This document shows, piece by piece, positions 37,280 to 50,298 of a DNA stretch of 52,913 nt (positions within the stretch are counted from its first letter, which is position 1; each line of letters begins with the position of its first letter). The position numbers were made by a program, and so were the translations under genes. The notes beneath the pieces were generated by a model. That model saw only the letters and a program-made list of their open reading frames with translations. It was not told the origin of the DNA and did no database searches. The DNA comes from a virus (lineage: Duplodnaviria > Caudoviricetes): the IMG/VR virus record IMGVR_UViG_3300044729_002905, positions 1 through 52,913 of that record. One strand, 5' to 3'.

Positions 37280-37309
37280 ACGTCTAGCTGATGGACGTTA
37301 AATCGTAGC
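37280..37309 (+). ncRNA. Family C pseudoknot element, divergent copy
   Basis: ACGTCT-agctgat-GGACGT-TAA-ATCGTAGC. Confidence 0.4.
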
Positions 37310-37337
37310 GAGTTCATTCTAATTACTTATCAACATC

Positions 37338-37520
37338 ATGATTTACACCGTTCAAGTCAAGCGTGATTACTTTAATCAATACGCTGATTACACCTTTCAA
37401 GATGAATACTTCAATGGTTCCGAGAAACAGTTCAACACAGAAGAGGAAGCTGTTCAGTACTTCAAGTCTTTTGAAGACTGGGAGCAAGATCTTCTAATGG
37501 TTGAATCGTTTCCTTTCTGA
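37338..37520 (+). CDS. Early hypothetical protein
   Basis: 60 aa, acidic. Confidence 0.6.
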   Translation: MIYTVQVKRDYFNQYADYTFQDEYFNGSEKQFNTEEEAVQYFKSFEDWEQDLLMVESFPF

Positions 37521-37588
37521 GTACCAGGCATGATGCCGGGGGATCGAATCCCCCACTCAGTATTACCCTTAGCGGAGATGGGTACCGC
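37517..37588 (+). ncRNA. Family A tRNA-like junction element, copy 1
   Basis: CTGAGT/ACTCAG closing stem, GGCA/TGCC hairpin, GGGG-ATCGAAT-CCCC T-arm, then TATTACCC...GGGTACCGC. Confidence 0.55.
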
Positions 37589-37603
37589 CATTGAATCAAT
37601 CTC

Positions 37604-37807
37604 ATGTTTATTTCTTTTAACAAAGTTGTAGCTCTTTACTTTGCTATGGTTTTTATATGTGTTGGAGCTACAACACTATTTGCAACTGTAGGTGTGCATA
37701 AATTAGATCAGGCAACTGCACAACAGTGCCGCACACATGATTGGCCTGCAGACAAGCATCAAGTTCACATGGCTTGGTGCGCAGCTAATGGCTATCAAAC
37801 TAATTAA
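37604..37807 (+). CDS. Early membrane or secreted small protein
   Basis: N-terminal TM and 'QQCRTHDWPADKH...WC..NGY'. Confidence 0.6.
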   Translation: MFISFNKVVALYFAMVFICVGATTLFATVGVHKLDQATAQQCRTHDWPADKHQVHMAWCAANGYQTN

Positions 37808-37855
37808 TCAGGCTGTGCCCTCCTCATTGGGGTGCCTTAGCAGGTTAATTATTTA

Positions 37856-37931
37856 AGTTGATTCGTACCCAAGCGAGTCCGGTGGTGCAAACCCACCGGC
37901 AACTATTACCCCCAGCGGAGATGGGTACCGC
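37856..37931 (+). ncRNA. Family A element, copy 2
   Basis: AGTTG/CAACT, ATTCG/CGAGT, CCGGTGG-TGCAAAC-CCACCGG, then TATTACCC...GGGTACCGC. Confidence 0.55.
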
Positions 37932-37937
37932 ACACAC

Positions 37938-38237
37938 ATGGAGTTATCCATGGATCTGACTACAGGTTGGAAGCCACATGATATACCAGGTGGTTATCGC
38001 CTGGTTTACTCAGATGACTTGGTCGGAGGCATATCCATTGTTACTGGACCGCGAGGTTCAGGACTGATGGCAGCTAACGACCCAGGTCAAGAGACCACAT
38101 ACGAAGTGTGGTTTCCAGGATTAGCTGATCCAACTGGTCACCTAACACTTGATGAGATTAAAGGAATCATCAAGTATTTGCGTCAGCGAGAAGAAGAATT
38201 TATATACACAGCGTATAGCGATTATGAAAACAACTGA
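37938..38237 (+). CDS. Early hypothetical protein
   Basis: 99 aa between two family A elements. Confidence 0.6.
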   Translation: MELSMDLTTGWKPHDIPGGYRLVYSDDLVGGISIVTGPRGSGLMAANDPGQETTYEVWFPGLADPTGHLTLDEIKGIIKYLRQREEEFIYTAYSDYENN

Positions 38238-38300
38238 TCCGTAAAAGCGGGTGACCAGGTGCAAACCCTGGTCCAGTTATTGCCGCTCACTAAGAGTGGC
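38232..38300 (+). ncRNA. Family A element, copy 3
   Basis: AACTG/CAGTT, TCCGT/GCGGG, GACCAGG-TGCAAAC-CCTGGTC, then TATTGCC and a hairpin. Confidence 0.55.
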
Positions 38301-38311
38301 TTACGTTAATT

Positions 38312-38467
38312 ATGGCTATTCGCAAATCACTTGCGTCATTCCTTGTAGCTACAGCTAATAAGCTGGAGCGTGATCAAAGCAAAGAGAAGGTGGGAACAAC
38401 AATCAAGGCTGTTCGCTTTGCACTTGCTAATGCGATCATGCCGAAAGTCCCACCTGTTCATCGTTAA
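38312..38467 (+). CDS. Early small protein (51 aa)
   Basis: MAIRKSLASFLVATANKLERD..., manual translation. Confidence 0.5.
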   Translation: MAIRKSLASFLVATANKLERDQSKEKVGTTIKAVRFALANAIMPKVPPVHR

Positions 38468-38484
38468 TTTATTTATCAAGTCAA

Positions 38485-38733
38485 ATGATTATCTATCAAC
38501 CTCACATCAACTCAACCGATCGTGTCATATGGCACGGTGGTGAATCAACCCAATTGCATTACGAACAACAGGTCGACGGTTGGGATGGCAATCCCGACTG
38601 GATAGACCGCAATGTTCAAACTCTTGGCAGTGGTATACCCACAAGCATGAGTGAAATGCACACTCATATGCAAGAGTTTTACAACTATTGCCAGGTGTGC
38701 GAATTTGAGCAACGCATGGCAATGGCAGACTGA
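38485..38733 (+). CDS. Early hypothetical protein
   Basis: 82 aa. Confidence 0.55.
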   Translation: MIIYQPHINSTDRVIWHGGESTQLHYEQQVDGWDGNPDWIDRNVQTLGSGIPTSMSEMHTHMQEFYNYCQVCEFEQRMAMAD

Positions 38734-38788
38734 TGTTTGCAACTAACCCTGAGTAACACCAGGGTTTTCTGCAGACTTCACATCTGCA
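38731..38788 (+). ncRNA. Family B bistable hairpin element, copy 1
   Basis: GTTTGCA-act-AACCCTG-loop-CAGGGTT-ttc-TGCAGAC, with an alternative partner TCTGCA downstream. Confidence 0.55.
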
Positions 38789-38816
38789 CTCAATTCAACT
38801 CAACCCACTTAGGACT

Positions 38817-39059
38817 ATGTCTCCTGCAAGTGTTGAACAACTTCTGATCCAAGACGCCAGGCTTCTCGCTCGTCGAGATGCACCTGCTATTGACCAAGAG
38901 ATTGAGAGTGCGCGGCAACAAGCACTCGAAATCTTTTACCAATGGCAAGACGGATTGGTTCAGTTCCAGGATCTAATCCCATTCGTTATTGTTCTCGAGA
39001 AGAAAGTCGATCTTAATCGTGCGCTTCTCAAATGGGAACAAGAACACATGATGGATTGA
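38817..39059 (+). CDS. Early hypothetical protein
   Basis: 80 aa between two family B elements. Confidence 0.6.
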   Translation: MSPASVEQLLIQDARLLARRDAPAIDQEIESARQQALEIFYQWQDGLVQFQDLIPFVIVLEKKVDLNRALLKWEQEHMMD

Positions 39060-39115
39060 TTCCTGCACTTAACCCTGAGTAACACCAGGGTTTTCTGCAG
39101 GACTTAACATCCTGT
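39057..39115 (+). ncRNA. Family B element, copy 2
   Basis: TCCTGCA-ctt-AACCCTG..CAGGGTT-ttc-TGCAGGA, then TCCTGT downstream. Confidence 0.55.
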
Positions 39116-39141
39116 CTATTAATTCAACTTAACTTAATTCA

Positions 39142-39534
39142 ATGACTTACGCTGATCTGCAAACGTTTACTGCTGTTGGTCGCATTGCTAATCTCACTGT
39201 TATTCAAACAGAAGATGAGCGCGATTGTTTGGTTGTTACTCTATACCACCGTATCTCTCAGGATGCTGTGGTCACAATCAAATTCCTCAACAGCAATGGT
39301 TTGCTTACTGCTTACACACATGACAATCTGGTTGTAGGCCAAGAGCTTACGGTGTCTGGAAAAATTCAAGGCATCCGTGCTTTCTATATGAAAGATGAAG
39401 AGCTCATGCCGCTCAAGCAACCAGAGTTTCAATTGAAAGTGATTGATTATACCTTTGGTTCCAAGCCTCAGCCTAAAGCTGAGGAAGGAACGAAGGTTAC
39501 TAGTAAGAAGAAGGTTGCATCTACTGCTGCCTAA
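39142..39534 (+). CDS. OB-fold / SSB-like protein
   Basis: 'TFTAVGRIAN...LVVGQELTVSGKI' resembles SSB; the tail is basic. Confidence 0.45.
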   Translation: MTYADLQTFTAVGRIANLTVIQTEDERDCLVVTLYHRISQDAVVTIKFLNSNGLLTAYTHDNLVVGQELTVSGKIQGIRAFYMKDEELMPLKQPEFQLKVIDYTFGSKPQPKAEEGTKVTSKKKVASTAA

Positions 39535-39546
39535 CTTATTACTGAC

Positions 39547-39618
39547 TGATTCTTGCACTTAACCCTTCTCATCAATGATGAGTGGGTTTTCTGCAGGAGA
39601 TCCTCTCTCCCCTCCTGC
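39547..39618 (+). ncRNA. Family B element, copy 3
   Basis: TTCTTGCA-ctt-AACCC..GGGTT-ttc-TGCAGGAG, then CTCCTGC downstream. Confidence 0.55.
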
Positions 39619-39629
39619 CCACCGCAACG

Positions 39630-39645
39630 TAGTACAGGTGTACTA
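39630..39645. promoter_or_regulatory. Cyanobacterial LexA box
   Basis: TAGTACAGGTGTACTA matches RGTAC-NNND-GTWCB and is intergenic. Confidence 0.65.
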
Positions 39646-39694
39646 TTTCGCCCATCAACCGTTAGGTTGATTCCTACTACACAGGTATTCCCTC

Positions 39695-39913
39695 ATGAAA
39701 CAGATTACTAAACTTGGTCCTAAACAATTTATTCACACTGATGTGTACCCTGAGTACCACAGCAGAAAGATAGGACGTTACTTTTGTAACTTCTTATCTA
39801 CAACCATTGTTATCTGCATCGCTTTTGTCGTAACAGGCGCTATGCTTGGTACCGACTTAACTAAGCCTTTACTACAGTGGTCACGCCAACAAACATTGGT
39901 CGTACCACGGTAA
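39695..39913 (+). CDS. Early small membrane protein
   Basis: 72 aa with one TM segment. Confidence 0.5.
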   Translation: MKQITKLGPKQFIHTDVYPEYHSRKIGRYFCNFLSTTIVICIAFVVTGAMLGTDLTKPLLQWSRQQTLVVPR

Positions 39914-39938
39914 ACTAATTAACCTAGCCGTTACTCCA

Positions 39939-40304
39939 ATGGTCTCACCAGCAGAACACATCACACATGCTTCGTTGAAGTGGAGATCTAACGGCGAACT
40001 ATCTGATTACGATCTAAGGTCTATCACTGCAAAGTTGATGGCCTTTGAACAAAGACCATTCACACTACCAGAAACTCAACCTATGACATACGTAGCTCTC
40101 GTCGCTGATTCTACCGGACGTTATGCCCATGTCTATGGCAATGCTAATAGCTGGGATAACTACATTGATCAACTCGAAGACATTGGATGTGAAGTCATTG
40201 AAAACCAGACCAGCGAATGGGATGGCGATGACGAAGCAATCAAAGAAGATTGCATTCACATCAGTAACTTAATGAAAGATACAGATTTTGTACCATTCGA
40301 TTAG
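39939..40304 (+). CDS. Early hypothetical protein (alternative start 40083)
   Basis: 121 aa ORF. Confidence 0.5.
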   Translation: MVSPAEHITHASLKWRSNGELSDYDLRSITAKLMAFEQRPFTLPETQPMTYVALVADSTGRYAHVYGNANSWDNYIDQLEDIGCEVIENQTSEWDGDDEAIKEDCIHISNLMKDTDFVPFD

Positions 40305-40362
40305 CTACGGATAATACATTACTTGGAATTCTGATAAACGTCGTTTATTCATATTCCCGATA

Positions 40363-40393
40363 AACGTCCTGAGTATGACGTTAAACTGCTCAG
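40363..40393 (+). ncRNA. Family C H-type pseudoknot element
   Basis: AACGTC-CTGAGTAT-GACGTT-AAAC-TGCTCAG. Confidence 0.6.
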
Positions 40394-40412
40394 TCCTTTA
40401 TCAACTCATCTA

Positions 40413-40571
40413 ATGACAACTCAACCACTTGATGAGAACTACAATGCAGATCTTCTTGACGCATGGTCTGACCTTGCGTACCAGCAGGAGCAAGCAATGC
40501 GAGAAGAAATGCAACCACCTAACCAAACCAACGAGGTAACCAATGACTCAACCACAGACTCAACAATATAA
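40413..40571 (+). CDS. Early small acidic protein (52 aa)
   Basis: MTTQPLDENYNADLLDAWSDLAYQQE... Confidence 0.45.
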   Translation: MTTQPLDENYNADLLDAWSDLAYQQEQAMREEMQPPNQTNEVTNDSTTDSTI

Positions 40572-40923
40572 TGATGATGTAATACTACACATCATCGTTA
40601 TCCTGACCATTCTCGCCACACTGTTCCTCCAATTCATTTCACTACTATGGCCCTCCAACCAGTCCAACACGAAATCGCTGCAGTCGTTGGGTACACCCCA
40701 CTCACCAACGATGAAGGACAAGAGCCTGCCGACACCACACTCTGTTTCCACACCGTTGAAGACAGAGGAGGTTGGCCGCACATCTACTGGAAAGGTGAGT
40801 GGTACCCCGTCCCAACCCTCGAGGAAGTCGAGGAGTGGGTCTTCGACTCAGTCTGCTTTACGCCAGACGAGGACGAAACGGAACCCGACGACCCCAACAG
40901 TTGGCTCTCAATCCTTAACCTAA
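40543..40923 (+). CDS. Membrane-anchored Ser/Thr-rich protein (overlapping)
   Basis: Clear TM 'VILHIIVILTILATLFLQFISLLW'. Confidence 0.4.
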   Translation: MTQPQTQQYNDDVILHIIVILTILATLFLQFISLLWPSNQSNTKSLQSLGTPHSPTMKDKSLPTPHSVSTPLKTEEVGRTSTGKVSGTPSQPSRKSRSGSSTQSALRQTRTKRNPTTPTVGSQSLT

Positions 40924-40928
40924 TTTAA
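40647..40928 (+). CDS. Early acidic hypothetical protein
   Basis: 'PTLEEVEEWVFDSVCFTPD...EPDDPNSWLSILNLI'. Confidence 0.6.
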   Translation: MALQPVQHEIAAVVGYTPLTNDEGQEPADTTLCFHTVEDRGGWPHIYWKGEWYPVPTLEEVEEWVFDSVCFTPDEDETEPDDPNSWLSILNLI

Positions 40929-40993
40929 GTATTAAATTGCACGTTAAATTTACCAATACTACCCATGTATTGGTAATAGTGTTAATACTACAA

Positions 40994-41034
40994 GCTGGGC
41001 ATCCACTGTGGATATACATGGTGTAAGTCCCAGC
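40994..41034 (+). ncRNA. Family D element, copy 1
   Basis: GCTGGG-CAT-hairpin-TGTAAGT-CCCAGC. Confidence 0.6.
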
Positions 41035-41055
41035 ATTCACCTCAACTCAACTGTT

Positions 41056-41262
41056 ATGACTGAAGAGAACCAACGGTATCACCTCATCATTAACGTTGAT
41101 GAGAAGTATACCATTGTCAATGCACTAGCCTTCTATCATGCTCATCACACCCTTGGTGCATCACTTGATGAAGATGAGCGTGAACAATATGCACTCGCAT
41201 TCAAGGAAGATGGTGCAACTCTTGTGGATACTTTAGCTACAAGAGTGGCTAACACTTTCTAA
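41056..41262 (+). CDS. Early hypothetical protein
   Basis: Start ATG 41056, after a family D element. Confidence 0.55.
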   Translation: MTEENQRYHLIINVDEKYTIVNALAFYHAHHTLGASLDEDEREQYALAFKEDGATLVDTLATRVANTF

Positions 41263-41265
41263 TAC

Positions 41266-41304
41266 CTGGGCATCCACTACGTAAGTATGTGGTGTAAGTC
41301 CCAG
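41266..41304 (+). ncRNA. Family D element, copy 2
   Basis: CTGGG-CAT-CCAC..GTGG-TGTAAGT-CCCAG. Confidence 0.6.
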
Positions 41305-41333
41305 TATCAACCTAAACCTACAGTAAACACACC

Positions 41334-41657
41334 ATGGGAAAACACGAACTTCACTTCACCAGCCAAACGTACACTCGTCACGATGGCAGTGAATACACCC
41401 CACGCCTCAACGATGATATGCGCATCACATTAATCATCGAAGAACTTATGGCTATCTACCAACGAGAACAGAAGCGTCCTATGGGACACAATGATCTTCC
41501 GTATGGTTCAGATGAATATCTATTGGAAGCTATTGGTTATCTAGAGAAAGCAATTGAATGGCCTGGTGAAATCGAAGATTCATGTGGTGAACCACCTATC
41601 ACTATGGCTGAAATGCATTCAGCCGCATGGAAAGAACATCAAGAAGCACATCGGTAA
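41334..41657 (+). CDS. Early hypothetical protein
   Basis: 107 aa ending 'GEPPITMAEMHSAAWKEHQEAH'. Confidence 0.6.
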   Translation: MGKHELHFTSQTYTRHDGSEYTPRLNDDMRITLIIEELMAIYQREQKRPMGHNDLPYGSDEYLLEAIGYLEKAIEWPGEIEDSCGEPPITMAEMHSAAWKEHQEAHR

Positions 41658-41826
41658 CAACATCAACTAAACCTTGGTACTGCCAGATAAACACTGGCCT
41701 ACCACAGGTTAAGAAACAGTTAAGACATCACCCCCAACGTAAGTGCTATGCAAAGGCGCTGTGCCTTGCAGTCTACTTTAAATTTGAGTAGACTAATAAT
41801 GCAAAGCGCTTTAAATTTATTAAACC

Positions 41827-42408
41827 ATGGAAGTCACTGATTATTACACTTATGCATATTTAGATGAAAATAAGAAACCATATTACATTGGTAAAGGACG
41901 AAGTGCACGTGCATTAACTAAACATGCAAATGTAAAGATACCAAACAAAGATAATATCTTGATTCTTAAAAAGAATTTAACTGAAAAGAATGCATTAAAA
42001 CATGAACAATATATGATTTTTCTATATGGTAGAAAAGTTGATTGTTCTGGAATTCTTGAAAACAAACTTATTCAAGGCAGTCAAAGTTTAACTAAAGGAC
42101 ATATGTTATATAACAAAGAAGATCCTAATGAATGGAGCGATTTAATGCTTTGTGCTATTTTCGGTAGCAAAACTGCAGCTTGTGTGCTTTTATTTATTCA
42201 GAAAAACAATGAAGCACATGCAAATCGAATTGCCAATACTTTTGGTTTTGGATTAAATATGGTTCAACGCCAGTTAAAAAGGCTAGAGCAAAATTATATT
42301 TTAAATAGCCGTGTAATGGGAAACGTTAGACTGTATTCTTTTAATACACGTAATCCAACAGTAAACAATTTAAAAGTTTTTTTAAATTCTTGTTTAATTA
42401 ACAAGTAA
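41827..42408 (+). CDS. GIY-YIG-like nuclease domain fused to an ArsR-like winged helix
   Basis: 'YYTYAYLDENKKPYYIGKG...R...E..AL.HE' plus 'IFGSKTAACVLLFI...IANTFG..LNMVQRQLKRLE....L.SR..GNVRLYSFN'. AT-rich. Confidence 0.65.
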   Translation: MEVTDYYTYAYLDENKKPYYIGKGRSARALTKHANVKIPNKDNILILKKNLTEKNALKHEQYMIFLYGRKVDCSGILENKLIQGSQSLTKGHMLYNKEDPNEWSDLMLCAIFGSKTAACVLLFIQKNNEAHANRIANTFGFGLNMVQRQLKRLEQNYILNSRVMGNVRLYSFNTRNPTVNNLKVFLNSCLINK

Positions 42409-42541
42409 TGTTTCTTTTATTATATTTGTTTACAAGAGCACCGCCTTGTTGTGCAAGTGTTACAACTCATAACATGAGTCAAACCACTTGACAGAAGGTG
42501 GTAAGCTAACAACGTTCAATTACTTCACACCATTCAAAACT

Positions 42542-42760
42542 ATGACTGCACTTAACGACACTCCCAAACCACGCATCCCTGATGCAATTGATAATCAACG
42601 ATTGCAAGCTATGTCAATCGTTGCCAAGATGAAAGAATCTGCTGATCGACATGGTATTGGTTTTGTCGGCGGCTTTGTAGACGCCGATGGAAATAAATTT
42701 GTAATGACAAATATGTCTGATGAAGACACCAATGCACTCATGCCTGGAGATCTTCAGTGA
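42542..42760 (+). CDS. Early hypothetical protein
   Basis: Likely start is ATG 42542. Confidence 0.55.
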   Translation: MTALNDTPKPRIPDAIDNQRLQAMSIVAKMKESADRHGIGFVGGFVDADGNKFVMTNMSDEDTNALMPGDLQ

Positions 42761-43038
42761 CCATAACTAAACCAAAGACTCAAACTAAAACTCAACCTAA
42801 TACACGTCACCTGCCTGCTCAGCCAGGTGACATATGGGTTACTCAACGCAAGAATAGTCTTGGCGTTGGATCTAAACTTATGTGTACCGATGAAGAGTGT
42901 GATGAAAACCCAGGCTTCTATCGGTTCTACTACTTGATTGGCTGTGCCAACATTGGGCCATGGACATTTCTTGACACCAAGACAATGGAAGGGTTTAATC
43001 TTTACAAACGTAAAGGAACTATCTACAACAAACCATGA
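42757..43038 (+). CDS. Early hypothetical protein
   Basis: 93 aa, coupled to the upstream ORF. Confidence 0.5.
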   Translation: MTITKPKTQTKTQPNTRHLPAQPGDIWVTQRKNSLGVGSKLMCTDEECDENPGFYRFYYLIGCANIGPWTFLDTKTMEGFNLYKRKGTIYNKP

Positions 43039-43110
43039 GCTGGCCCGAAACATTTGTATTGTGCACATTCTTTATATGTGGCACATACCTTACTATCCAA
43101 ATCATTAAAG

Positions 43111-43281
43111 ATGACTAAACAAATTATCTACAAAGAAATTATTGAAATTGATGGTCGTGAATACAAAGTTGCAGAGTTTGATTATTCTGAGTTTGTAAAC
43201 GATGCCATCAACCAAGATTTTATTACTGATAACAACCTGGATATTATTAAATGGGTTGTTTCTGACATCACTGAAATCTAA
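43111..43281 (+). CDS. Early small protein
   Basis: Likely start is ATG 43111. Confidence 0.5.
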   Translation: MTKQIIYKEIIEIDGREYKVAEFDYSEFVNDAINQDFITDNNLDIIKWVVSDITEI

Positions 43282-43305
43282 TTAATTTTAAATCATTAAA
43301 TAAGT

Positions 43306-43629
43306 ATGACATTCACAATCACTGATCATCAATCCGAACTTATCGAAGATCTTCTCGAACGTTTTAACTTTGAGAAAGTCCAGATCGCAATGACTGCACT
43401 TGATTGGAAGTGGGCTAACGTTATGGAAGACGGTAGCTTAACTGTTCCAACTATTGAACGTATGAAGCGTTCATGCAGAAATATTCTTTACCGATCTATT
43501 AATGATAAGTCGGTAGGCACTGGTGGATTCGAAGCTTGTTACTATCCACCAGGCGAAGATGATATCGAAGAAGAAACCTTTGCACTTAAATTTGTTGTTA
43601 CTCAATCTTTTACTAACGGAGATTGGTAA
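43306..43629 (+). CDS. Hypothetical phage protein
   Basis: 'FNFEKVQIAMTALDWKW....VPTIE...GTGGFEA'. Confidence 0.65.
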   Translation: MTFTITDHQSELIEDLLERFNFEKVQIAMTALDWKWANVMEDGSLTVPTIERMKRSCRNILYRSINDKSVGTGGFEACYYPPGEDDIEEETFALKFVVTQSFTNGDW

Positions 43630-43833: not shown

Positions 43834-43872
43834 CTGGGCATCACCTACATAAGTACGGTGTGTAAGCCCCAG
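43834..43872 (+). ncRNA. Family D element, copy 3
   Basis: CTGGG-CAT-CACC..GGTG-TGTAAGC-CCCAG. Confidence 0.6.
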
Positions 43873-43903
43873 CATTCACCTCAACCTTGACAACAACTTA
43901 ACT

Positions 43904-44080
43904 ATGGAAAGCAACCTTAATTTGTTTCAACGCACCAATCTTGCACAGTGTGCAGCCAAACGCGCATATGAAAACTGTGGTGATGAACACAGGTTTCACG
44001 GAGAGTTCTGCACAGCACGTGCATGGAACAAATACAAGTGTTACATCTCAACTATTTGTCAGTTTGTAGAACCTAACTAA
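43904..44080 (+). CDS. Early small protein (58 aa)
   Basis: MESNLNLFQRTNLAQCAAKRAY... Confidence 0.45.
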   Translation: MESNLNLFQRTNLAQCAAKRAYENCGDEHRFHGEFCTARAWNKYKCYISTICQFVEPN

Positions 44081-44172
44081 AGTACATGCATGGGGTCCCC
44101 CCTGGACCCCCCTGCAAACCTGTACCACGTAGGCACTATTAGTAACACTAGTAATCTCTACTAACTACATTC

Positions 44173-44433
44173 ATGACAATCCTATCCATTGAAGAAACAA
44201 TCATCAATCAATCCCATGTCACAGTTACTGCACTTGTTGAAGACATGCTTCTTCTACACAAAGCAACTTACTTCGAACCTGATGAATGGGCTCCAGCACT
44301 TTGCATTGCAGATTTCCAATTGGATGAGGACGAACAAATCCCTACTGATGAAGATGGCTTCTGTCAGTATCTTGCTGACAGAGATCTTCAATGGCAACTT
44401 GTCGACACATCTGATTGGTATCTAGCATCATGA
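44173..44433 (+). CDS. Early hypothetical protein
   Basis: 86 aa, acidic. Confidence 0.6.
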   Translation: MTILSIEETIINQSHVTVTALVEDMLLLHKATYFEPDEWAPALCIADFQLDEDEQIPTDEDGFCQYLADRDLQWQLVDTSDWYLAS

Positions 44434-44630
44434 TTGGTTTCTCTATCGAATTCAAACGTTGGTACCTTGTGATCCGTGGTCCCAAAGGTCGTGTGTACAG
44501 TGCATTTGGTTTTGCAAACCAGATGCCTGTCTTCACACCAGAAAAGACCATGACCTTGCAAGAGTACATGGATGACTATAACGATGCCATTGTCTTTACT
44601 TGTAATGGTGAAGAAATAATGCGCATCTGA
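44430..44630 (+). CDS. Early hypothetical protein
   Basis: ATGA-coupled to the upstream ORF. Confidence 0.5.
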   Translation: MIGFSIEFKRWYLVIRGPKGRVYSAFGFANQMPVFTPEKTMTLQEYMDDYNDAIVFTCNGEEIMRI

Positions 44631-44633
44631 TCC

Positions 44634-44663
44634 AACGTCCTGAGCATGACGTTAAACTGCTCA
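44634..44663 (+). ncRNA. Family C H-type pseudoknot element
   Basis: AACGTC-CTGAGCAT-GACGTT-AAAC-TGCTCA. Confidence 0.6.
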
Positions 44664-44690
44664 ACACTACACACTTACTACGAACTTACT

Positions 44691-46430
44691 ATGCAATTCC
44701 GTCTCCCCACTCAACTACAACAAGAGTTGATGGCGTATGACCCAGCTCTTAAAGCACTGGCTAAACAGCAGACAGTAGCTAACAAAACCAAGAAGACTAC
44801 CCACCCACTGGGTAAACCCAATCAACTTATCCCAACTGAAGTATTGCCAGTATCGTTATATAACGATGCCATTGATAATATTAATTCACAGGCAGCACCT
44901 GACCGTTATCAACTGTTCACACGAATCATTGATCGTGTAGTAACACCGTACGCAATCTTGTATCACTTTGAACAAGTGTGGTATGCAGCATGGCTACCAC
45001 CCAAAGGACAAGAAGATCAGTACGTTTATGGTTACTCATATGCATTCAAGGACAATGCATCTGCATACAAGATGCTTCCTCGTAAGATTCGCGAAAACTT
45101 AAGTAAACTATCTGCATATCATGTTGGTCGTGTTCAGTATTTTACATACAACAAACTAGTAACTAAACAAGATATTATTGATGGGCACGATGCTAGAAAC
45201 TGGAATATTCCTAGTGTTCAAAGCTATTACAAAAAGTCTGGCAACTTGTTTCAACAATTAAAAGGATTTGAAGATCGACTATTTAACACCATTCCTATGT
45301 GGTCCGACAGTCGATCAACCTTTGCTCGGCTCCAGGCAATTAGTCCAGCCTGTGTAATTTTTACCAATGATTACCGTTACGGCCAAGAGTGTACAGCATA
45401 TTGGCAACACAATGACATTACTAAAGCTGTAATTTCATATGACTTGTTGTTTAAACTTATTACTACCTACGCACATAGTAATAGTTATGACGGTGATAGC
45501 TATCGAAAGTTAAATAAATTGCTGCACATTATTGCTACTCCATTTTTTAAGAAATGGATTCAAACAAAATGTGATGAAGTTAATGCAAACTTCTATAACC
45601 CTAACAATCAATTACTTCAATCTATTCGTGCACCATGGGTTCAAATCCATACACTGTTTAATGCCATTGATCTTGTACGTGAAATTTGGCCTAACTGCCC
45701 TATTGATTATTATCAATCCCACATCAATCAACTGTTAAGTTTTAAATCAACACGTCATGGTACGCTTTTAACACAAGCTTGGCTAAACAAACATATGCCT
45801 GTAGCTTCTTTCTTTTCTATTCTTGAAAAAGAATATGATAAAGAAATGAATAGCACACGTACTCGTTATAACTACGATGAAGAACTACAACACCCACGTT
45901 TTTATTATTCCAACTGGACAGATACTATTTCAATGTTAGATACTGTGCTTGCACACAACGCATGCGCAACAGAACCATTAACTCTTGACGTTCCAAAACG
46001 TTGGAGACTTATGGAGTTCCATGATCACATTCAATCTGTTGCATGGAAAGTTAAGAACAAAAACGAATCACTGCCCCAAGACTTGTTCCCTGAACCAGTC
46101 AAGCTTGAACTTGGTTCCAGTAAGTGGACATTCTTTCAGCCGGTTGATACACATCAACTAGCTGCTTGGGGACAAGCCGTACGTAATTGCGTTGGCAGTG
46201 CCAGTGGTTATGCAGATGGTGTTCGTAAGAAGAAACACTTTATCGTGTTGTGTATGATTGATAACAAACCTCAGTTCACTATCCAACTAGAAGTGAACAT
46301 GGGTATGATGTCTGTTAAACAGATCGCTGGTATTGGTAATACCAGGCTTACGGATGAAGAACGTGAGCTTTACACAACTGCATTCAGTAAGGCGTTGACT
46401 CAACGCGAGTCTGCGCTAGCATCTGCATAG
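44691..46430 (+). CDS. PcfJ-like domain protein
   Basis: C-terminal 'EFHDHI...QLAAWGQAVRNCVGS..GY........FIV.......FTIQL......KQI.G.GN'. Likely start is ATG 44691. Confidence 0.75.
   Translation: MQFRLPTQLQQELMAYDPALKALAKQQTVANKTKKTTHPLGKPNQLIPTEVLPVSLYNDAIDNINSQAAPDRYQLFTRIIDRVVTPYAILYHFEQVWYAAWLPPKGQEDQYVYGYSYAFKDNASAYKMLPRKIRENLSKLSAYHVGRVQYFTYNKLVTKQDIIDGHDARNWNIPSVQSYYKKSGNLFQQLKGFEDRLFNTIPMWSDSRSTFARLQAISPACVIFTNDYRYGQECTAYWQHNDITKAVISYDLLFKLITTYAHSNSYDGDSYRKLNKLLHIIATPFFKKWIQTKCDEVNANFYNPNNQLLQSIRAPWVQIHTLFNAIDLVREIWPNCPIDYYQSHINQLLSFKSTRHGTLLTQAWLNKHMPVASFFSILEKEYDKEMNSTRTRYNYDEELQHPRFYYSNWTDTISMLDTVLAHNACATEPLTLDVPKRWRLMEFHDHIQSVAWKVKNKNESLPQDLFPEPVKLELGSSKWTFFQPVDTHQLAAWGQAVRNCVGSASGYADGVRKKKHFIVLCMIDNKPQFTIQLEVNMGMMSVKQIAGIGNTRLTDEERELYTTAFSKALTQRESALASA
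46395..46422 (+). promoter_or_regulatory. Sigma70-like promoter
   Basis: TTGACT-16 nt-TAGCAT. Confidence 0.45.
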
Positions 46431-46481
46431 CCCCCACAGGCTGACCCGTCTTATCCTCGACAATAGGGCGGGTCACATCCA

Positions 46482-46703
46482 ATGATTAACTACACAGACG
46501 AACAACTACTTGCCATGGCCATGGCAAACATTGGCACTTACATTCATGACAACTCACCTCAGTACATCTTGATTGAAGACCCACGTAACGAAGATGATTA
46601 CGATACGTGGGATTACGGCTGTGAACCATTACCTCATGACCACACTTGGCAACACACATCAATTGATGTGAGTGTAAGCCCAAGTGATGGGGATGTGGCG
46701 TAA
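46482..46703 (+). CDS. Early acidic hypothetical protein
   Basis: 73 aa; the 3' end overlaps a family D element and the tRNA 5' end. Confidence 0.5.
   Translation: MINYTDEQLLAMAMANIGTYIHDNSPQYILIEDPRNEDDYDTWDYGCEPLPHDHTWQHTSIDVSVSPSDGDVA
46643..46686 (+). ncRNA. Family D element, copy abutting the tRNA
   Basis: CACTTGG-CAA-hairpin(CACATC/GATGTG)-TGTAAGC-CCAAGTG. Confidence 0.5.
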
Positions 46704-46774
46704 TCGGTAGCCGCTGCGCACTTAAAATGCGTTGACCATTGGTCGTGTCGGTTCAAGTCCGACCATCCCTACCA
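46689..46774 (+). tRNA. trnL: tRNA-Leu (anticodon UAA), intronless, with encoded CCA
   Basis: Acceptor GGGGATG/CATCCCT, anticodon arm GCGCA-CTTAAAA-TGCGT, long variable arm, GGTTCAAGTCC T-arm, ACCA end. Confidence 0.95.
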
Positions 46775-46794
46775 ATCCATTTGCAATTAAAACT

Positions 46795-47289
46795 ATGCAA
46801 CCTATTGTTACTTACACTAAGCCACAACAAGTATCTGTATTTAAAACAGATAACTATTTTCACATTTCTGTTACTGATGACAACGGAATTGAACAATCAA
46901 TTAAGTTGCCAACCAGTACAACTAAAGTAATTAAAACAGTACAACAAACTCCTGTTGTAATTGAACCAGAAGCTGTTAAACCTTCTATTGTTCGTATTGA
47001 TCGTACAGAAGATGGTCGTCAAATCGAACAACGAATTGAACCAAAAATTGTAAAACTTCCTAGAGAAGAACCTAAAAAATATAAAAAACAAAACCAAAAT
47101 TCAAAACCATTTACATCTAAACTTACACGATCACAAGTAATGGAAATTAAAACAATGCTTTATGATCCAAAGTTTATGGCTACTTATCCATCTTGTTATC
47201 AAGCTTATAAAGAAATCGCTAGTATTTATGGTGTTACTTATATGTGTATTCAGTTTATTCACAAAGGAGTTACCTGGAAAAATGTTTGA
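46795..47289 (+). CDS. Protein with a C-terminal HNH-associated HTH
   Basis: 'SKLTRSQVMEIK...YKEIASIYGVT...I..I.KGVTWKNV'. Start ATG 46795. Confidence 0.6.
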   Translation: MQPIVTYTKPQQVSVFKTDNYFHISVTDDNGIEQSIKLPTSTTKVIKTVQQTPVVIEPEAVKPSIVRIDRTEDGRQIEQRIEPKIVKLPREEPKKYKKQNQNSKPFTSKLTRSQVMEIKTMLYDPKFMATYPSCYQAYKEIASIYGVTYMCIQFIHKGVTWKNV

Positions 47290-47292
47290 TTA

Positions 47293-47322
47293 CCTGGGCA
47301 TCTACATAGTGTAAGTCCCAGG
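47293..47322 (+). ncRNA. Family D element, minimal copy
   Basis: CCTGGG-CAT-CTAcaTAG-TGTAAGT-CCCAGG. Confidence 0.6.
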
Positions 47323-47351
47323 TTTATTAATCCCTTTACTTAATTCACACC

Positions 47352-47708
47352 ATGCTTTCCTACTTCAAACATCTCATCCCTCAGCCCCATGGTTACATGG
47401 ATGAGGACAAACGTTACAACTTGGGCTTAACCTGGACTGATGTAGATGGTCTTACTGACTGTCATAATCTTGAGTTCAGGTACGTACGCAATTCAGAACG
47501 TCTTGCGCTCCAAGGGCAGCCAATGCCTGATGGTAGCTGGCAATACGTAGAAGCCAACGGTACTGTTCATACTATTACTCCTGAACGCGCCAAAGCATTC
47601 ATGGATAAAACACATGAACACGCTACTATTATGTGCGCAATGCTAGATAAAATGCGTGAAGCTGGCATGATGGATAACATTATTGACACCAGTGCTCAAG
47701 CTGCTTAA
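47352..47708 (+). CDS. Hypothetical protein
   Basis: 118 aa. Confidence 0.6.
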   Translation: MLSYFKHLIPQPHGYMDEDKRYNLGLTWTDVDGLTDCHNLEFRYVRNSERLALQGQPMPDGSWQYVEANGTVHTITPERAKAFMDKTHEHATIMCAMLDKMREAGMMDNIIDTSAQAA

Positions 47709-47711
47709 GCT
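47683..47711 (+). promoter_or_regulatory. Sigma70-like promoter
   Basis: TTGACA-17 nt-TAAGCT. Confidence 0.5.
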
Positions 47712-47730
47712 ACTGACGAAACACAACTCA

Positions 47731-47759
47731 GCCCCCGTGCAAACGGGGGTATTTCTTTT
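47731..47759 (+). terminator. Terminator-like hairpin
   Basis: GCCCCCGT-gcaa-ACGGGGGT followed by ATTTCTTTT. Confidence 0.55.
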
Positions 47760-48050
47760 ATGCAACCAGAAGAACTGCAACAACTCATTCAACAAATCAA
47801 TGACAACATTCCTGATCACACATGGGATCTGGTAAAAGATGCAGCTATTGCACAGATTGTAGATCTAATGGATCTCAATACTTTGCTTAAGCTTGCAGAG
47901 TTGTCACTGTCTGAGTACTATCACGAACACAAAGATGAGATCATTCAAGATCTTGTTTCATTTGTTGGTATTGACACAACAGTACACACATTAGATTCAC
48001 TTCAACTTGACAAAGTTCTTGTAACTACCAATGAAATGTCTGAAGTGTGA
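47760..48050 (+). CDS. Hypothetical protein
   Basis: 96 aa. Confidence 0.55.
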   Translation: MQPEELQQLIQQINDNIPDHTWDLVKDAAIAQIVDLMDLNTLLKLAELSLSEYYHEHKDEIIQDLVSFVGIDTTVHTLDSLQLDKVLVTTNEMSEV

Positions 48051-48369
48051 TAGTAAAAACACTCGTGTTACTTGCACTGTTCATTCAGAAACAAACACTA
48101 AACGGTATTGCCGATGTCTTGATTGCAATCAAAAGTTTCAAACTATTGAGCGTTACGTCAAGTACCACCGGGGTCCCAAACGTGGTGGTAAACTAGCTGA
48201 CACACAAGGAATCAAAAATGGTAATGCAGTTTTAACTGAACAAAACATTTTAGATATCCGTAAATTAAAAGCAGAAGGCAAATCAAACTTTGCAATCTCT
48301 GTAATTTATGGAATCAACCGTGGTCATGTATCACGAATTGTCAACCACAAAGTCTGGGCTCATGTCTAA
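48031..48369 (+). CDS. NrdR-like zinc ribbon plus HTH protein
   Basis: 'MKCLKCDSKNTRV..T......KRYCRCLDCNQKFQTIERY' plus 'NAVLTEQNILDIRKL...GINRGHVSRIV...W.HV'. Confidence 0.7.
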   Translation: MKCLKCDSKNTRVTCTVHSETNTKRYCRCLDCNQKFQTIERYVKYHRGPKRGGKLADTQGIKNGNAVLTEQNILDIRKLKAEGKSNFAISVIYGINRGHVSRIVNHKVWAHV

Positions 48370-48661
48370 ACACATCAAGATTATTCGATTCAAAGTTGGT
48401 GATCGCGTTGCTGAAAAACCAAAAGACAATTACATTCCAACTATCAGGCCAGAAAAAACAACTGTTGTATTGCGTAATTCAACCCAACGTATTGGTGTTG
48501 TAACCAATGTATTTGAAAAGAAAGATGCACGCAAACACACCTACACTTACTACGATGTAGCTTGGGATAACGGCAGGTCATCAACACATGCACAGTTCCG
48601 TTTGTGCCACGAACATGAACTAGCTGGTGTGCTCCAGGATTACCGCAATGCTATTGAGTAA
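48362..48661 (+). CDS. SH3-like hypothetical protein
   Basis: 'RFKVGDRV.....GVVT......YYDVAWDNG'. Confidence 0.55.
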   Translation: MSKHIKIIRFKVGDRVAEKPKDNYIPTIRPEKTTVVLRNSTQRIGVVTNVFEKKDARKHTYTYYDVAWDNGRSSTHAQFRLCHEHELAGVLQDYRNAIE

Positions 48662-48691
48662 CTTAATTACACACACAAGAGGAAACAACTA

Positions 48692-49060
48692 ATGACTAAC
48701 CAACAACACCCCATCACCCCGCCACCGGATCTGGTAGAGCAGTGGCTAAAAGAGTTTTACGGCGCGAAGCTTGAATACGTAGCTGAGGCTTCCATTCATC
48801 TTGCCGCCCGCGCTGCCCAATGGGGCGGAGACAAGGAGCTAAAAGCGTGCTGTGAGTGGTTACACGATACTTGTGTTGAAGATCCTGAAGATATAGTTCC
48901 AGAACTCCGCGCCGCCCGCCGCCCCAAGCCGCTGAGCTTGAAGGAGCAGGCGCTGGAGACGCTACAGCGGATTCGCAAGGATGGATACCCTTGCAATTTT
49001 CAAGAAGACTCTGATTGGGACACCATCCGCCGCGCACTGGAGGCCTTGCTCGATGACTGA
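48692..49060 (+). CDS. Hypothetical cyanophage-type protein
   Basis: 'QQHPITPPPDLVEQW...AAQWG.D.EL.ACCEWL...LRAARRPKP.SLKEQAL'; more GC-rich than its neighbours. Confidence 0.65.
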   Translation: MTNQQHPITPPPDLVEQWLKEFYGAKLEYVAEASIHLAARAAQWGGDKELKACCEWLHDTCVEDPEDIVPELRAARRPKPLSLKEQALETLQRIRKDGYPCNFQEDSDWDTIRRALEALLDD

Positions 49061-49301
49061 CCTCTCCCCCGCCGCGCAGGCAATTTTCACTGCTCAGGCC
49101 AAACAACGATGCTTGAACGAATGGGATCACGTCAATGATCCTCCGTGCCACCCAAGTGACAACGACTGGAACGGATGTTATCAATGCGTTGATCGCCGTG
49201 GACTTGCTGCCGCCTTGCGAGCTGTTGTACAAGAACTTAAGTATTTTGGTATCACTGAGAAAAACATTCTCGCCATCGCCGCCGAGCTTGAAACCCAGTA
49301 A
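49053..49301 (+). CDS. Hypothetical cyanophage-type protein
   Basis: 'MTDLSPAAQAI...LAAALRAV...ILAIAAELE'. Confidence 0.6.
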   Translation: MTDLSPAAQAIFTAQAKQRCLNEWDHVNDPPCHPSDNDWNGCYQCVDRRGLAAALRAVVQELKYFGITEKNILAIAAELETQ

Positions 49302-49315
49302 CCAACATCCCTTCT

Positions 49316-49474
49316 ATGTCTGCTCAACCACGGATCTTTACAGTTGACGAACTTGATGAGTTTTGCCTTTGGTGGTGGGGCTCAGACAATGACGAGCGTA
49401 CAGTCACTGATGTAATCGAAAGCGGAAGCATGACTGCGTTTGCTGAAGCTTGTATTGCCCGCTGGGGTAAGTAG
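49316..49474 (+). CDS. Small hypothetical protein (52 aa)
   Basis: Ends in 'FAEACIARWGK'. Confidence 0.5.
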   Translation: MSAQPRIFTVDELDEFCLWWWGSDNDERTVTDVIESGSMTAFAEACIARWGK

Positions 49475-49512
49475 TCCGATCAACTTATGAAACTATCTTG
49501 TCTCATGTAACT

Positions 49513-49713
49513 ATGACTGATCACAAACAACTGATAACTGAAATCAAAGTCATTCAAGATCTTGAAGCCATGTTAGATCAAGCTATACAAGCTGCCGAGA
49601 CTCTCCATGATTGCTGGATTGAACGTACTGGCCTCAAGATCGAAGATGACCCCTATGTAGAAGATGCTTGTTCCACAATTCTTTCTATCCGCGCTGAGCG
49701 TTTAGCTAATTAG
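49513..49713 (+). CDS. Small hypothetical protein
   Basis: Flanked by 21-bp direct repeats. Confidence 0.5.
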   Translation: MTDHKQLITEIKVIQDLEAMLDQAIQAAETLHDCWIERTGLKIEDDPYVEDACSTILSIRAERLAN

Positions 49714-49725
49714 TTTGATTAACTT

Positions 49726-50073
49726 ATGAAACTATCTTGTCCTAAGTGCCAAGCAAAAGCACGTGTTCGATCTGCGGAACACACACCAACTGAAATACAT
49801 CGTTGGTTTACTTGTACTAACTGTAAATTTAAATTTAGAACTGTTGAAAGATATTATCTTGTTAAACCAATTTTGATTAACAAACCTAAGTTAACCACAC
49901 AAAAATTACAAGGTAGTAGTAATCATGCTGCTGTATTACAAGAACAAGATGTTGTTCGATTAAGAACAATGGCTAAACAAGGAACTACATCTAAAGAGCT
50001 TGCTAAAGTATTCGGTATGTCTCAATCACATGTAAATCGCATACTTAGATATCAAGCTTGGAAACATGTGTAA
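49726..50073 (+). CDS. Zinc ribbon plus HTH protein (paralog of 48031..48369)
   Basis: 'CPKC....RV.......RWFTCTNCKFKFRTVERY' plus 'AVLQEQDVVRLR...ELAKVFGMSQSHVNRIL...WKHV'. Confidence 0.7.
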   Translation: MKLSCPKCQAKARVRSAEHTPTEIHRWFTCTNCKFKFRTVERYYLVKPILINKPKLTTQKLQGSSNHAAVLQEQDVVRLRTMAKQGTTSKELAKVFGMSQSHVNRILRYQAWKHV

Positions 50074-50270
50074 TTAAACAACACACTCTTTATTGTTCTT
50101 GAGATCAGCAACAGATTTGTTTTGTTCTTTGACCCAGCGGTTAAGCTGTTCTTTTTTAACAGCAAAGTAAATTAATTTTGCAGGGCTCATGGATCTGTAG
50201 TAATTACTACAAAATTGTATTTGATTTTTTGTTATGCGGTAGTTTGCTGCGTAACAAAACTTAGTTGACT

Positions 50271-50298
50271 TGTCCTAGGCATGACATTAAACTGCTCA
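50271..50298 (+). ncRNA. Family C H-type pseudoknot element
   Basis: TGTC-CTAGGCAT-GACA-TTAAAC-TGCTCA. Confidence 0.55.

Follow-up and report, generated by a model that had tools for sequence, protein, structure and literature searches.

Fifteen short structured RNA elements, which fall into four families (A, three copies; B, three; C, four; D, five), were identified by repeat finding and sequence reading in the early region (37281-50298) of the viral record IMGVR_UViG_3300044729_002905. This IMG/VR record was analysed over its whole length of 52.9 kb, hereafter the window, and its estimated completeness is 66%. All fifteen elements lie on the plus strand. The central result concerns family C, which is predicted to be a classical H-type pseudoknot and has its invariant core in common with coremin, an exoribonuclease-resistant RNA (xrRNA) of plant and fungal RNA viruses. 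The reading which we favour overall, and which we regard as evenly poised between right and wrong, is that the elements are cis-acting RNA modules at early-gene boundaries, among which C would be a coremin-class block to 5'-to-3' decay. A first-pass annotation, made from the letters of the window, had listed four families in about 15 copies, in the order C, A, A, A, B, B, B, C, D, D, D, C, D, D, C; every copy was recovered in its place and order by repeat finding, reading, a covariance model for D and a regular expression for C. It had also proposed that selection acts on RNA structure rather than on a DNA operator and had named covariation among homologs beforehand as a test. Covariation was found in every family that could be tested, in C (42 copies), in D (45) and in type ii of A (15), and G.U pairs far outnumbered A.C pairs (24 vs 6 in the second stem of C, 42 vs 0 in A type ii), thus the plus-strand RNA appears to be the folding molecule.

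The virus is an S-EIV1-like freshwater cyanophage; its nearest named relative is the Synechococcus phage S-EIVl, with 76% identity across about 240 nt. Among the sequencing runs listed as containing the window, 20 were of DNA and none of RNA. The minus-strand genes of the window include the large terminase and virion proteins, while the plus-strand block from about 37.3 kb holds about 35 mostly small open reading frames (ORFs) followed by a GP88-family gene and a family A DNA polymerase. As closer relatives, six viral contigs were used, which carry homologs (46-90% identity) of a 582-aa PcfJ-like protein of the early region. All four families were present in these six contigs, on the gene strand only, and their order was kept: C, A copies, B copies, D copies, a C before the PcfJ-like gene and a D before the tRNA. 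The early strand of S-EIVl carries four C-like copies, at least two of D and one of B. It probably carries family A as well, since the 76% match covers A2, although A itself was not searched for there.

One covariance model was built, for D; copies of C, A and B were gathered by regular expressions. The minimum free energy (MFE) z-scores against shuffles were -4.2 to -5.1 for B, -3.7 for A3 and about -2.6 to -2.9 for D1, D4 and C2, and those of the other seven copies (-0.06 to -1.65) were no better than shuffles. The single-sequence folds are of uneven strength, and MFE folding cannot represent the C pseudoknot; the real support for the folds is comparative. The first-pass annotation had recognised no named Rfam family among the elements, and a cmscan of the window against Rfam 15 at the gathering score agreed with it, the only matches being a group I intron and a tRNA. 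With E values up to 10 nothing convincing fell on any element; a weak SpF41 match over A3 reached 23 bits, as compared to a gathering score of 52.

Fold and distribution of family C and its likeness to coremin

In family C a first stem, S1 (CGUC/GACG), encloses a loop made of one C (L1), a strand of 6-7 nt (S2a) and one U; it is followed by UUAAAC (L3) and by the complement of S2a, which forms the second stem, S2. A structure-aware regular expression found the four copies on the plus strand of the window and no other match on either strand. C2 (40365-40393; next start 40413) has S1 CGTC/GACG, C as L1, S2 TGAGTA/TGCTCA(G) and L3 TTAAAC. C3 (44636-44663) lies 5 nt past the TGA stop 44628-44630 and ahead of the PcfJ-like gene (start 44682), a position that its ortholog keeps in six of the six relatives, and C4 (50271-50298), with the covaried S1 TGTC/GACA, stands ahead of the GP88-family gene (start 50320). 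C1 (37281-37309), recovered by the regular expression and by reading, is divergent: CGTC, a 9-nt loop and GACG are followed by TTAAAT-CG, and its second stem has 4 bp (GCTG/TAGC). It closes a long leader ahead of the first early ORF (start 37338) and has U18 and C19 in coremin numbering; position 19 is C or G in the relatives L005 and L009. Covariation of the second stem was not shown for this subtype.

In the 42 distinct copies with an 8-nt loop, 93.1% of the cells were paired, compared to 81.6% after shuffling, and double changes were found in 49 cells vs 15; none of 500 shuffles was as high, and slid controls were paired in 18-48%. In S2, 88.5% of the cells were paired; A-U19 never changes, the five pairs that follow it covary, and four of the six pairs change on both sides. 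L1 (column 8) is C in all 42 copies. The invariant columns are exactly U14, A15, A16, A17, C18 and U19; the column before them (U13) varies between T and C, and position 20 is G in at least 90% of the copies.

This first collection was biased in requiring a paired S1, and two checks without this bias were added. A scan of IMG/VR returned at least 115 stretches; its pattern prescribed the core of S1, the linker strand and, for the 3' strand of S2, no more than the two initial bases (TG). Among the matches listed there were 120 distinct viral copies from 95 loci, 79 of which had six out of six and 110 at least five consecutive S2 pairs; with swapped partners 25% of these 120 reached six pairs. 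When 153 copies were picked only by NUAAACU and six S2 pairs, all four S1 pairs could be formed in 141 (19 in the control). The sequence CGTC/GACG was present in 99 of these 141, and the complementary variants, six alternatives being counted in all, included TGTC/GACA, AGTC/GACT, GGAC/GTCC, GGTC/GACC and AGAC/GTCT. The loops (8 nt in 114 copies, 9 nt in 26, 10 nt in one) open with C, mostly have U as their second base and mostly end with A-U. An NtcA/CRP-like operator in place of the stem was ruled out, as GAC...GTC variants replace GTC...GAC. A preQ1-I-like riboswitch, a pistol-like ribozyme, a K-turn and a tetraloop-receptor were weighed by eye; none of them was supported or had an Rfam match.

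The likeness to coremin emerged from a text search with the invariant 10-mer of C. According to three papers (PMC6546385, PMC10520033, PMC10321173), coremin is the Xrn1-resistant RNA (xrRNA-C) of beny-, cucumo- and other plant and fungal RNA viruses. Its first hairpin has a 3-4 bp GUC/GAC stem closed by C-G, in which covariation is tolerated. Nucleotide 5, the first loop base, is C, and U alone is tolerated instead (PMC10321173). The loop consensus is YGAD (4 nt) or YGNNAD (6 nt), working hepta- and octaloops which break this rule having also been reported. In the spacer UUAAACUAC the positions A15-A17, C18, U19 and A20 are essential and U13-U14 tolerant, and a natural variant has C at the first spacer position. 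The spacer is followed by a second hairpin, which may have any sequence and is required for Xrn1 resistance. A suspected pseudoknot was demonstrated for the 'Watson-Crick type', in which loop positions 6-8 pair with spacer positions 20-18, including A7-U19 and G6-C20. Xrn1 halts one nucleotide before the first stem, and the element can likewise stall a scanning ribosome and stimulate -1 frameshifting in vitro (PMC6546385, PMC10520033, PMC10321173 for all these points). A passage in a review adds that xrRNAs stop bacterial RNase J1 as well.

Both motifs have the 4-bp CGUC/GACG stem, C as the first loop base and the UUAAACU strand after the stem. The coremin-essential A15-A17, C18 and U19 are the invariant bases of C, and the preceding base is tolerant in both; in either motif, bases of the loop pair with the stretch that begins at position 19, an A-U19 pair included. 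Tandem or multiple copies occur in both, some of them intergenic and near stop codons. On the other hand, S2 of C has 6-7 Watson-Crick pairs, compared to three at most in coremin; C is encoded in double-stranded DNA phages and bacteria, 5' of genes, while coremin lies in 3' untranslated regions; and the nuclease relevant to C would be RNase J and not Xrn1. Judged from its sequence, C is a coremin-class variant rather than a new fold, without being a proven member of the class. The first-pass annotation had put the four families forward as a candidate undescribed system, and 'undescribed' stands for A, B and D, which have no known counterpart, while the fold of C is a variant of a published motif which is apparently unreported in phages or bacteria. 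No report of a coremin-like RNA in prokaryotes was found in a literature search on xrRNAs with phages, bacteria or RNase J, in which subscription journals were thinly covered, and the three coremin papers make no mention of bacteria or phages (PMC6546385, PMC10520033, PMC10321173). The IMG/VR catalogue of 8,495 candidate structured RNAs may already include these families unnamed (PMC10690425).

C or C-like copies are present in more than 100 viral contigs, and several bacterial phyla include genomes that have them. The scan of bacterial genomes gave 20 stretches, a number near the chance expectation for the pattern, and in 10 of these (two identical) S2 has 5-7 consecutive pairs. Their sources are Richelia, a Synechococcus metagenome-assembled genome (MAG), Terribacillus, a Bacillota MAG, Pelotomaculum, and MAGs of Patescibacteria, Saccharibacteria, Omnitrophota (two tandem copies) and Flavobacteriaceae. 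Some of the surroundings were read by eye: a C-like copy of Gemella, with S2 in another register, is ahead of an ORF resembling a large terminase; that of Terribacillus precedes a scaffold-like ORF starting MLKRLNLQFFA; and the tandem copies of the Omnitrophota MAG precede an Rrf2-like regulator. One C-bearing viral contig (L037) holds a cluster of 26 tRNA genes (217-8933).

The placement of C follows the ends of genes. Of 76 distinct copies, 53 are preceded at no more than 40 nt by the end of an ORF of 45 codons or more, and 23 are not. The gap from the stop codon to S1 is 5 nt in 28 of these 53, 6 nt in five and shorter in two, while 0.3% of random upstream positions fall at 5 nt. In a second set the gap was 5 nt in 29 of 82 copies, 6 nt in 13 and shorter in three, among the matches listed. 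In the window C3 is the sole copy directly after an ORF stop, and no ORF ends just upstream of C2 or C4. Takyar et al. reportedly found in 2005 that unwinding of mRNA by the ribosome extends to about +11, counted from the P site. With the stop codon in the A site, the 5-nt gap would put the first S1 pair at +12, just past the reach of the helicase and as near as a structure could stand without being unwound, which ties C to translated RNA. Downstream, the next start follows at a median distance of 22 nt, and the four copies of the window head four gene blocks: the first ORFs, the genes from g10 onward, the PcfJ-like gene, and the GP88 and DNA polymerase genes. The phage contig L147 has a tRNA-Arg that begins 1-2 nt past the end of a C copy.

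Families A, B and D

The covariance model of family D, trained on 22 copies, found exactly five copies in the window, all on the plus strand. The architecture comprises a stem P1 (CUGGG/CCCAG), CAU as the 5' loop strand, UGUAAGU as the 3' strand and, between these two strands, a P2 hairpin whose stem has 2 to about 14 bp and whose loop is free. D1 (40995-41033, 50.8 bits) has P1 CTGGG/CCCAG, CAT, a variable P2 hairpin and TGTAAGT. D2 (41266-41304, 52.9 bits) begins 3 nt past the TAA stop 41260-41262, and D3 (43834-43872, 49.6 bits) has P2 covaried to CACC/GGTG. The copy at 46645-46684 (44 bits), with the P1 variant CTTGG/CCAAG, ends 4 nt before the tRNA-Leu and is called D(tRNA) here, and D4 (47294-47321, 42.4 bits), 4 nt past the TGA stop 47287-47289, is a minimal D with a P2 of 2-3 bp. 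In the model-fitted alignment of 45 distinct copies 95.6% of the cells were paired vs 76.4% after shuffling, with 62 double-change cells vs 20; none of 500 shuffles was as high and slid controls were paired in 14-51%. An independent MAFFT alignment of 22 copies gave 96.0% vs 76.6%. P1 covaries at two positions (CUUGG/CCAAG, CUAGG/CCUAG), and all three scored P2 pairs covary.

Among 80 further viral loci D was detected in 19, and the 20 bacterial loci had none; it is specific to this phage clade. In all nine loci which have the tRNA-Leu, D lies 3-4 nt before it. The gap between stop codon and D can be as short as 3 nt, and the median distance from D to the start is 30 nt. Both C and D precede CA-rich leaders without an obvious Shine-Dalgarno sequence, then a start codon; they have the strands CUGRGCAU and U-UAA- in common. 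With D next to tRNA-Leu and C next to tRNA-Arg, the two families are positional equivalents. A promoter as an explanation of D was ruled out, since the spacing from CTGGGCAT to TGTAAGT ranges from 8 to more than 35 nt and TAAGTC is without the final T.

The first-pass annotation had placed the elements at gene boundaries, many at or overlapping the upstream stop and shortly before the next start. This agrees with the stop codons inside P1 of A1 and A3, 3-4 nt before B and D and 5 nt before C3, and with the median start distances of C and D, with one exception: D(tRNA) sits inside the last codons of the ORF 46482-46703 and not at an ordinary gene boundary. This plus-strand ORF runs through D and ends inside the tRNA-Leu; either its last approximately 19 codons are encoded by D, or its true stop is misjudged. 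The tRNA-Leu (UAA) itself (46689-46774, plus strand), directly 3' of the D copy, was called by ARAGORN and by the Rfam tRNA model (53.8 bits).

Family A is a three-way junction with an additional 3' domain and has two subtypes. In A1 (type i, 37517-37588) P1 is CTGAGT/ACTCAG, with the upstream TGA stop inside it, P2 is small and P3 is GGGGG-ATCGAAT-CCCCC; in its 3' domain the helices TACCC/GGGTA and GCGG/CCGC are interleaved around GGAGAT. A2 (type ii, 37856-37931) has P1 AGTTG/CAACT, P2, P3 CCGGTGG-TGCAAAC-CCACCGG and a 3' domain like that of A1. In A3 (type ii, 38232-38300, z -3.67) P1 is AACTG/CAGTT, again with a TGA stop inside, and is followed by P2, P3 GACCAGG-TGCAAAC-CCTGGTC and a 3' domain which is a plain 7-bp hairpin. 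In the 15 copies of type ii 98.9% of the cells were paired vs 82.9% after shuffling, and 10 of 18 pairs change on both sides; the 10 copies of type i are less variable. Every copy has a helix URCCY/RGGYA in its 3' domain. The GGAGAU-containing loop of this helix also pairs, in 15 of the 25 copies, GCGG with CCGC directly after the helix; the four pairs are present in all 15 rows, and the changes seen there include GCAG/CUGC, GUGG/CCAC and AGGG/CCCU. Since no linker follows the first helix, the two may be alternatives and not simultaneous.

The 3' strand of P3 runs straight into that of P1, so that P1 and P3 amount to 5+7 bp (type ii) or 6+5 bp (type i), and the P3 loop has 7 nt closed by G-C, UGCAAAC or AUCGAAU, which fits the T-loop consensus at most positions, not at all of them. 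The stack of 11-12 bp and the T-loop-like loop resemble the acceptor and T arm of tRNA-like processing signals, which include the plant mitochondrial t-elements, mascRNA and the minihelix substrates of RNase P. Family A differs from them in having no D arm, anticodon arm or CCA, and in its extra conserved 3' domain. No A copy was called a tRNA by ARAGORN or by the Rfam tRNA model, even with E up to 10; the tRNA-Leu was the only one found. A literature search with the core strings of A and D returned nothing relevant.

Family B has a UGC ... UGCAG clamp, which is invariant and encloses a hairpin of free sequence; a stem P3 follows. B1 (38738-38787, z -5.0) consists of the TGCA clamp, the hairpin AACCCTG/CAGGGTT, TTTTCTGCAG and P3 GCAGA/TCTGC, which overlaps the 3' strand of the clamp. 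B2 (39064-39114, z -5.1) has the same architecture with P3 CAGGA/TCCTG, and B3 (39554-39618, z -4.2) the same clamp, a longer apical hairpin and P3 GCAGGAG/CTCCTGC. The P3 variants GCAGA/UCUGC, CAGGA/UCCUG, GCAGAAC/GUUCUGC and CAGAGC/GCUCUG, read from the alignment and not formally counted, are complementary. Since the 5' strand of P3 (GCAG...) overlaps the 3' strand of the clamp, clamp and P3 compete, and since the clamp is invariant, its pairing is beyond a covariation test. Although B1-B3 end in GGGTTTT, the terminator scan called none of them except for a sub-hairpin of B3, and 6 of 18 aligned copies have no U run, thus B is not simply a terminator. The RNase III sites between the early genes of T7 are likewise hairpins that separate cistrons of a long transcript and have internal loops, and B, with about 50-65 nt and about 20 pairs, resembles them; it differs in its invariant clamp competing with P3, and C and D are too short for RNase III. 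Apart from family B, a strong terminator-like hairpin (47731-47759, plus strand; GCCCCCG-TGCAAA-CGGGGGT, then ATTTCTTTT) lies inside the C3 gene block, with the next ATG following at once (47760). Its loop, GTGCAAAC, resembles the P3 loop of family A.

Cassette exchange and the surrounding region

The proposal of the first-pass annotation that the repeats provide homology for cassette shuffling was borne out by the comparison with the relative L005, whose aligned segments are 74-95% identical to the window. The gene g7 (39142-39534) is present in the window and not in L005; its breakpoints fall inside B2 (left) and B3 (right), where L005 has a single B. Likewise g12 (41047-41262), absent from L005, lies between D1 and D2, which both align to one D of L005. 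Cassettes are replaced to the right of D3 and between D(tRNA) and D4, and just left of C4 a 183-nt insert (50074-50256), with a possible minus-strand ORF of 38 aa, is absent from L005. The plus-strand ORF 41827-42408 replaces a D-containing segment of L005. This AT-rich ORF (193 aa) has a GIY-YIG-like N-terminus by eye (YYIGKGRS) and matches only PHROGs without an assigned function; it is likely to be a free-standing homing endonuclease insertion. These borders support a role of the repeats as recombination points for gene cassettes.

A comparable system is known from T4-type phages, where, according to PMC4122927, the PeSLs are composite promoter/terminator repeats which mediate shuffling. 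The likeness lies in short repeated intergenic elements which, in an early region rich in ORFans, bound insertions, deletions and replacements between close relatives (PMC4122927). The PeSL is a stem-loop with a sigma-70 early promoter and acts at the level of DNA and transcription (PMC4122927), while the window has four distinct families with covarying helices, a pseudoknot and the G.U asymmetry, and a full promoter match at one copy only.

Upstream of C1 there is a conserved long leader (37000-37337) and, near 36939-36967, an AT-rich promoter-like stretch, both of which fit early transcripts that would start upstream of C1. The leader contains CTGTGGAAA twice in tandem (37170-37195); in two relatives (L008 1796-1822, L009 1450-1472) the tandem pair is inverted (TTTCCACAG twice). 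That its orientation does not matter suggests a protein binding site at the DNA level in the early control region.

Scans of 30 early ORFs with Pfam and of the 10 larger ORFs with Pfam and PHROGs revealed no RNA-binding protein and no RNase; what they gave were the PcfJ-like protein, the GP88 family, the family A DNA polymerase and two Zn-ribbon proteins. The latter are small plus-strand paralogs (48031-48369 and 49726-50073), the second of which has a helix-turn-helix matching sigma-70 region 4 (E 1.6e-5). A 35-nt repeat (49468-49502 and 49707-49741) holds the start of this second gene, and 239 nt upstream a truncated copy of the start (ATG, early stop) is found. Strong hairpins outside all four families occur in the intergenic stretches 44081-44172, 46431-46481, 39598-39694 and 41658-41826, for example GGGGTCC-CCCCT-GGACCCC at 44092-44110 and TGACCCG ... 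CGGGTCA at 46442-46475. The group I intron (RF00028, 89 bits, full-length model) is in the minus-strand late region at 21035-21303.

Possible roles of the elements

In the reading that we favour, the early and middle genes of the plus strand would be read as long polycistronic RNAs, the boundaries of which carry folded cis-acting modules. In C the UUAAAC strand would lie along the minor groove of S1 and make the element a directional mechanical block, at which RNase J, the 5' exonuclease of cyanobacteria and Firmicutes in question, would stall about one nucleotide before S1. What lies 3' of each C would then persist as a stable RNA, the 5' end of the downstream gene block being fixed at the element, which may also block approaching ribosomes. 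Protection of 5' ends from RNase J had been among the roles suggested in the first-pass annotation, of which the cutting of a long transcript into single-gene mRNAs and antitermination gained no direct support here, and is now the leading one for C; it is from the core in common with the Xrn1-resistant coremin that we infer this nuclease block. D probably has a protective role related to that of C, and A and B are most likely intercistronic endonuclease or stability determinants, functions which we infer from their folds and placement.

Several observations weigh against this reading. The C loop has 8-9 nt, compared to 4-6 in coremin, and does not follow YGAD or YGNNAD; position 20 is G where coremin has an essential A; and C has no local second hairpin after the spacer, since the next 6-7 nt pair into the first loop (the sequence farther downstream was not systematically searched). 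C1 departs at U19, a change which abolishes stalling in coremin. D, with a gap down to 3 nt, and A, with the stop inside, would be unfolded at every termination and are thus not roadblocks of the C type. RNase J (TIGR00649) was above the cut-off in four of five C-bearing genomes and in eight of 14 control genomes; as the enzyme is common, its presence discriminates little, and an Omnitrophota MAG (1.4 Mb) with a C-like copy showed no RNase J above the cut-off. Finally, C4 is also a good sigma-70 match (TTGACT-17-TAAACT), and 18 of 72 upstream hexamers of C score at least 4/6 for TTGACA, with about 9.5 expected (5 vs 1.5 at 5/6 or better).

The last two points belong to the strongest alternative, improbable as we consider it, according to which C is an early promoter for the host sigma-70 (-10 TAAACT, -35 just 5' of CGTC) and B a terminator, in PeSL-like cassettes with incidental or secondary helices. 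The C4 ortholog of L005 keeps TTGACT despite a different upstream sequence, C heads gene blocks (twice after minus-strand or non-coding DNA), and the S-EIVl annotation has no RNA polymerase, thus host promoters are needed; B1-B3 have their GGGTTTT ends, and the PeSLs, as cited above, offer a precedent of promoter/terminator repeats that mediate shuffling. A promoter does not account for the covariation of both C helices with G.U preferred to A.C, nor for the invariance of AAAC, which exceeds what a -10 hexamer requires. Most C copies have no -35, the one good -35 in the window being that of C4, and TAAACT is present in C2-C4 while C1 has no final T. The fixed 5-nt gap after stop codons, the copy 1-2 nt before a tRNA, the action of the same core as RNA in plant RNA viruses, as described in the coremin papers, and the six of 18 B copies in relatives without a U tract likewise speak against it. 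A dual RNA and promoter role at some C copies is possible.

A slightly weaker candidate has C acting on ribosomes, either as a roadblock or insulator between cistrons or by recoding at the upstream stop (-1 frameshifting, stop read-through or reinitiation). The effects of coremin on ribosomes cited above are in line with it, the 5-nt gap past the stop equals the usual spacer of recoding stimulators, and beyond the TGA at 44628 the reading frame continues without another stop, in register with the PcfJ-like start at 44682. Ahead of the C3 stop, however, inspection by eye gave no slippery heptamer, and a ribosomal role leaves aside C2 and C4, the 23 of 76 copies with no ORF end within 40 nt upstream and the copy preceding a tRNA.

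Clusters of different ribozyme classes occur in phage DNA, and one or more of A, B, D or C could be new small self-cleaving ribozymes that cut the polycistronic RNA without protein. We give this little credence: each family does join covarying stems with invariant junction or loop bases, as is typical of ribozymes, and C has a very wide phylogenetic spread, but no Rfam ribozyme family matches even with E up to 10, no cleavage-site signature was identified, and the coremin literature accounts for C without cleavage. Least probable of all is that C is a promoter-proximal RNA of the put type for processive antitermination, by which RNA polymerase would read through B and the 47731 hairpin, since the position of C at the head of gene blocks, the short U tracts of B1-B3 and a terminator-like hairpin with a T tract which lies within a block and so close to the next ATG that a promoter would not fit between them are outweighed by the lack of a known likeness of C to put, the presence of the motif in eukaryotic RNA viruses and directly before tRNAs, and the position of most C copies right after a translated ORF and not after a promoter.

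Returning to the decay block, a wider form of this proposal can be put forward, tentatively and with less confidence than the proposal itself. Double-stranded DNA phages and several bacterial phyla would halt RNase J with a coremin-class pseudoknot and in this way give mRNAs and tRNA precursors stable 5' ends, so that xrRNAs would extend beyond the RNA viruses of eukaryotes; C would be one letter of a four-letter A/B/C/D punctuation code, in which A, B and D are new processing or protection modules; the repeats would drive cassette exchange; and the long-S2 form would reveal the hidden fold of the plant motif. Since the cultured phage S-EIVl carries C, D, B and probably A, the system is directly testable in its Synechococcus host, Synechococcus sp. 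PCCC-A2c.

Should C indeed stop RNase J, no natural class of exoribonuclease-resistant RNA before it would have been common to plant or fungal RNA viruses and prokaryotes, which would pose the question of common descent, transfer or convergence. Research on bacterial RNA decay would also gain a 5' protector that is compact (about 30 nt) and portable. The prokaryotic copies of C, hundreds in number and with a long covarying S2, supply the comparative data which the coremin field has lacked for solving the fold. A, B and D add three conserved RNA families without a known counterpart to the poorly understood early regions of cyanophages, and the indel borders show how such repeats shape the plasticity of phage genomes.

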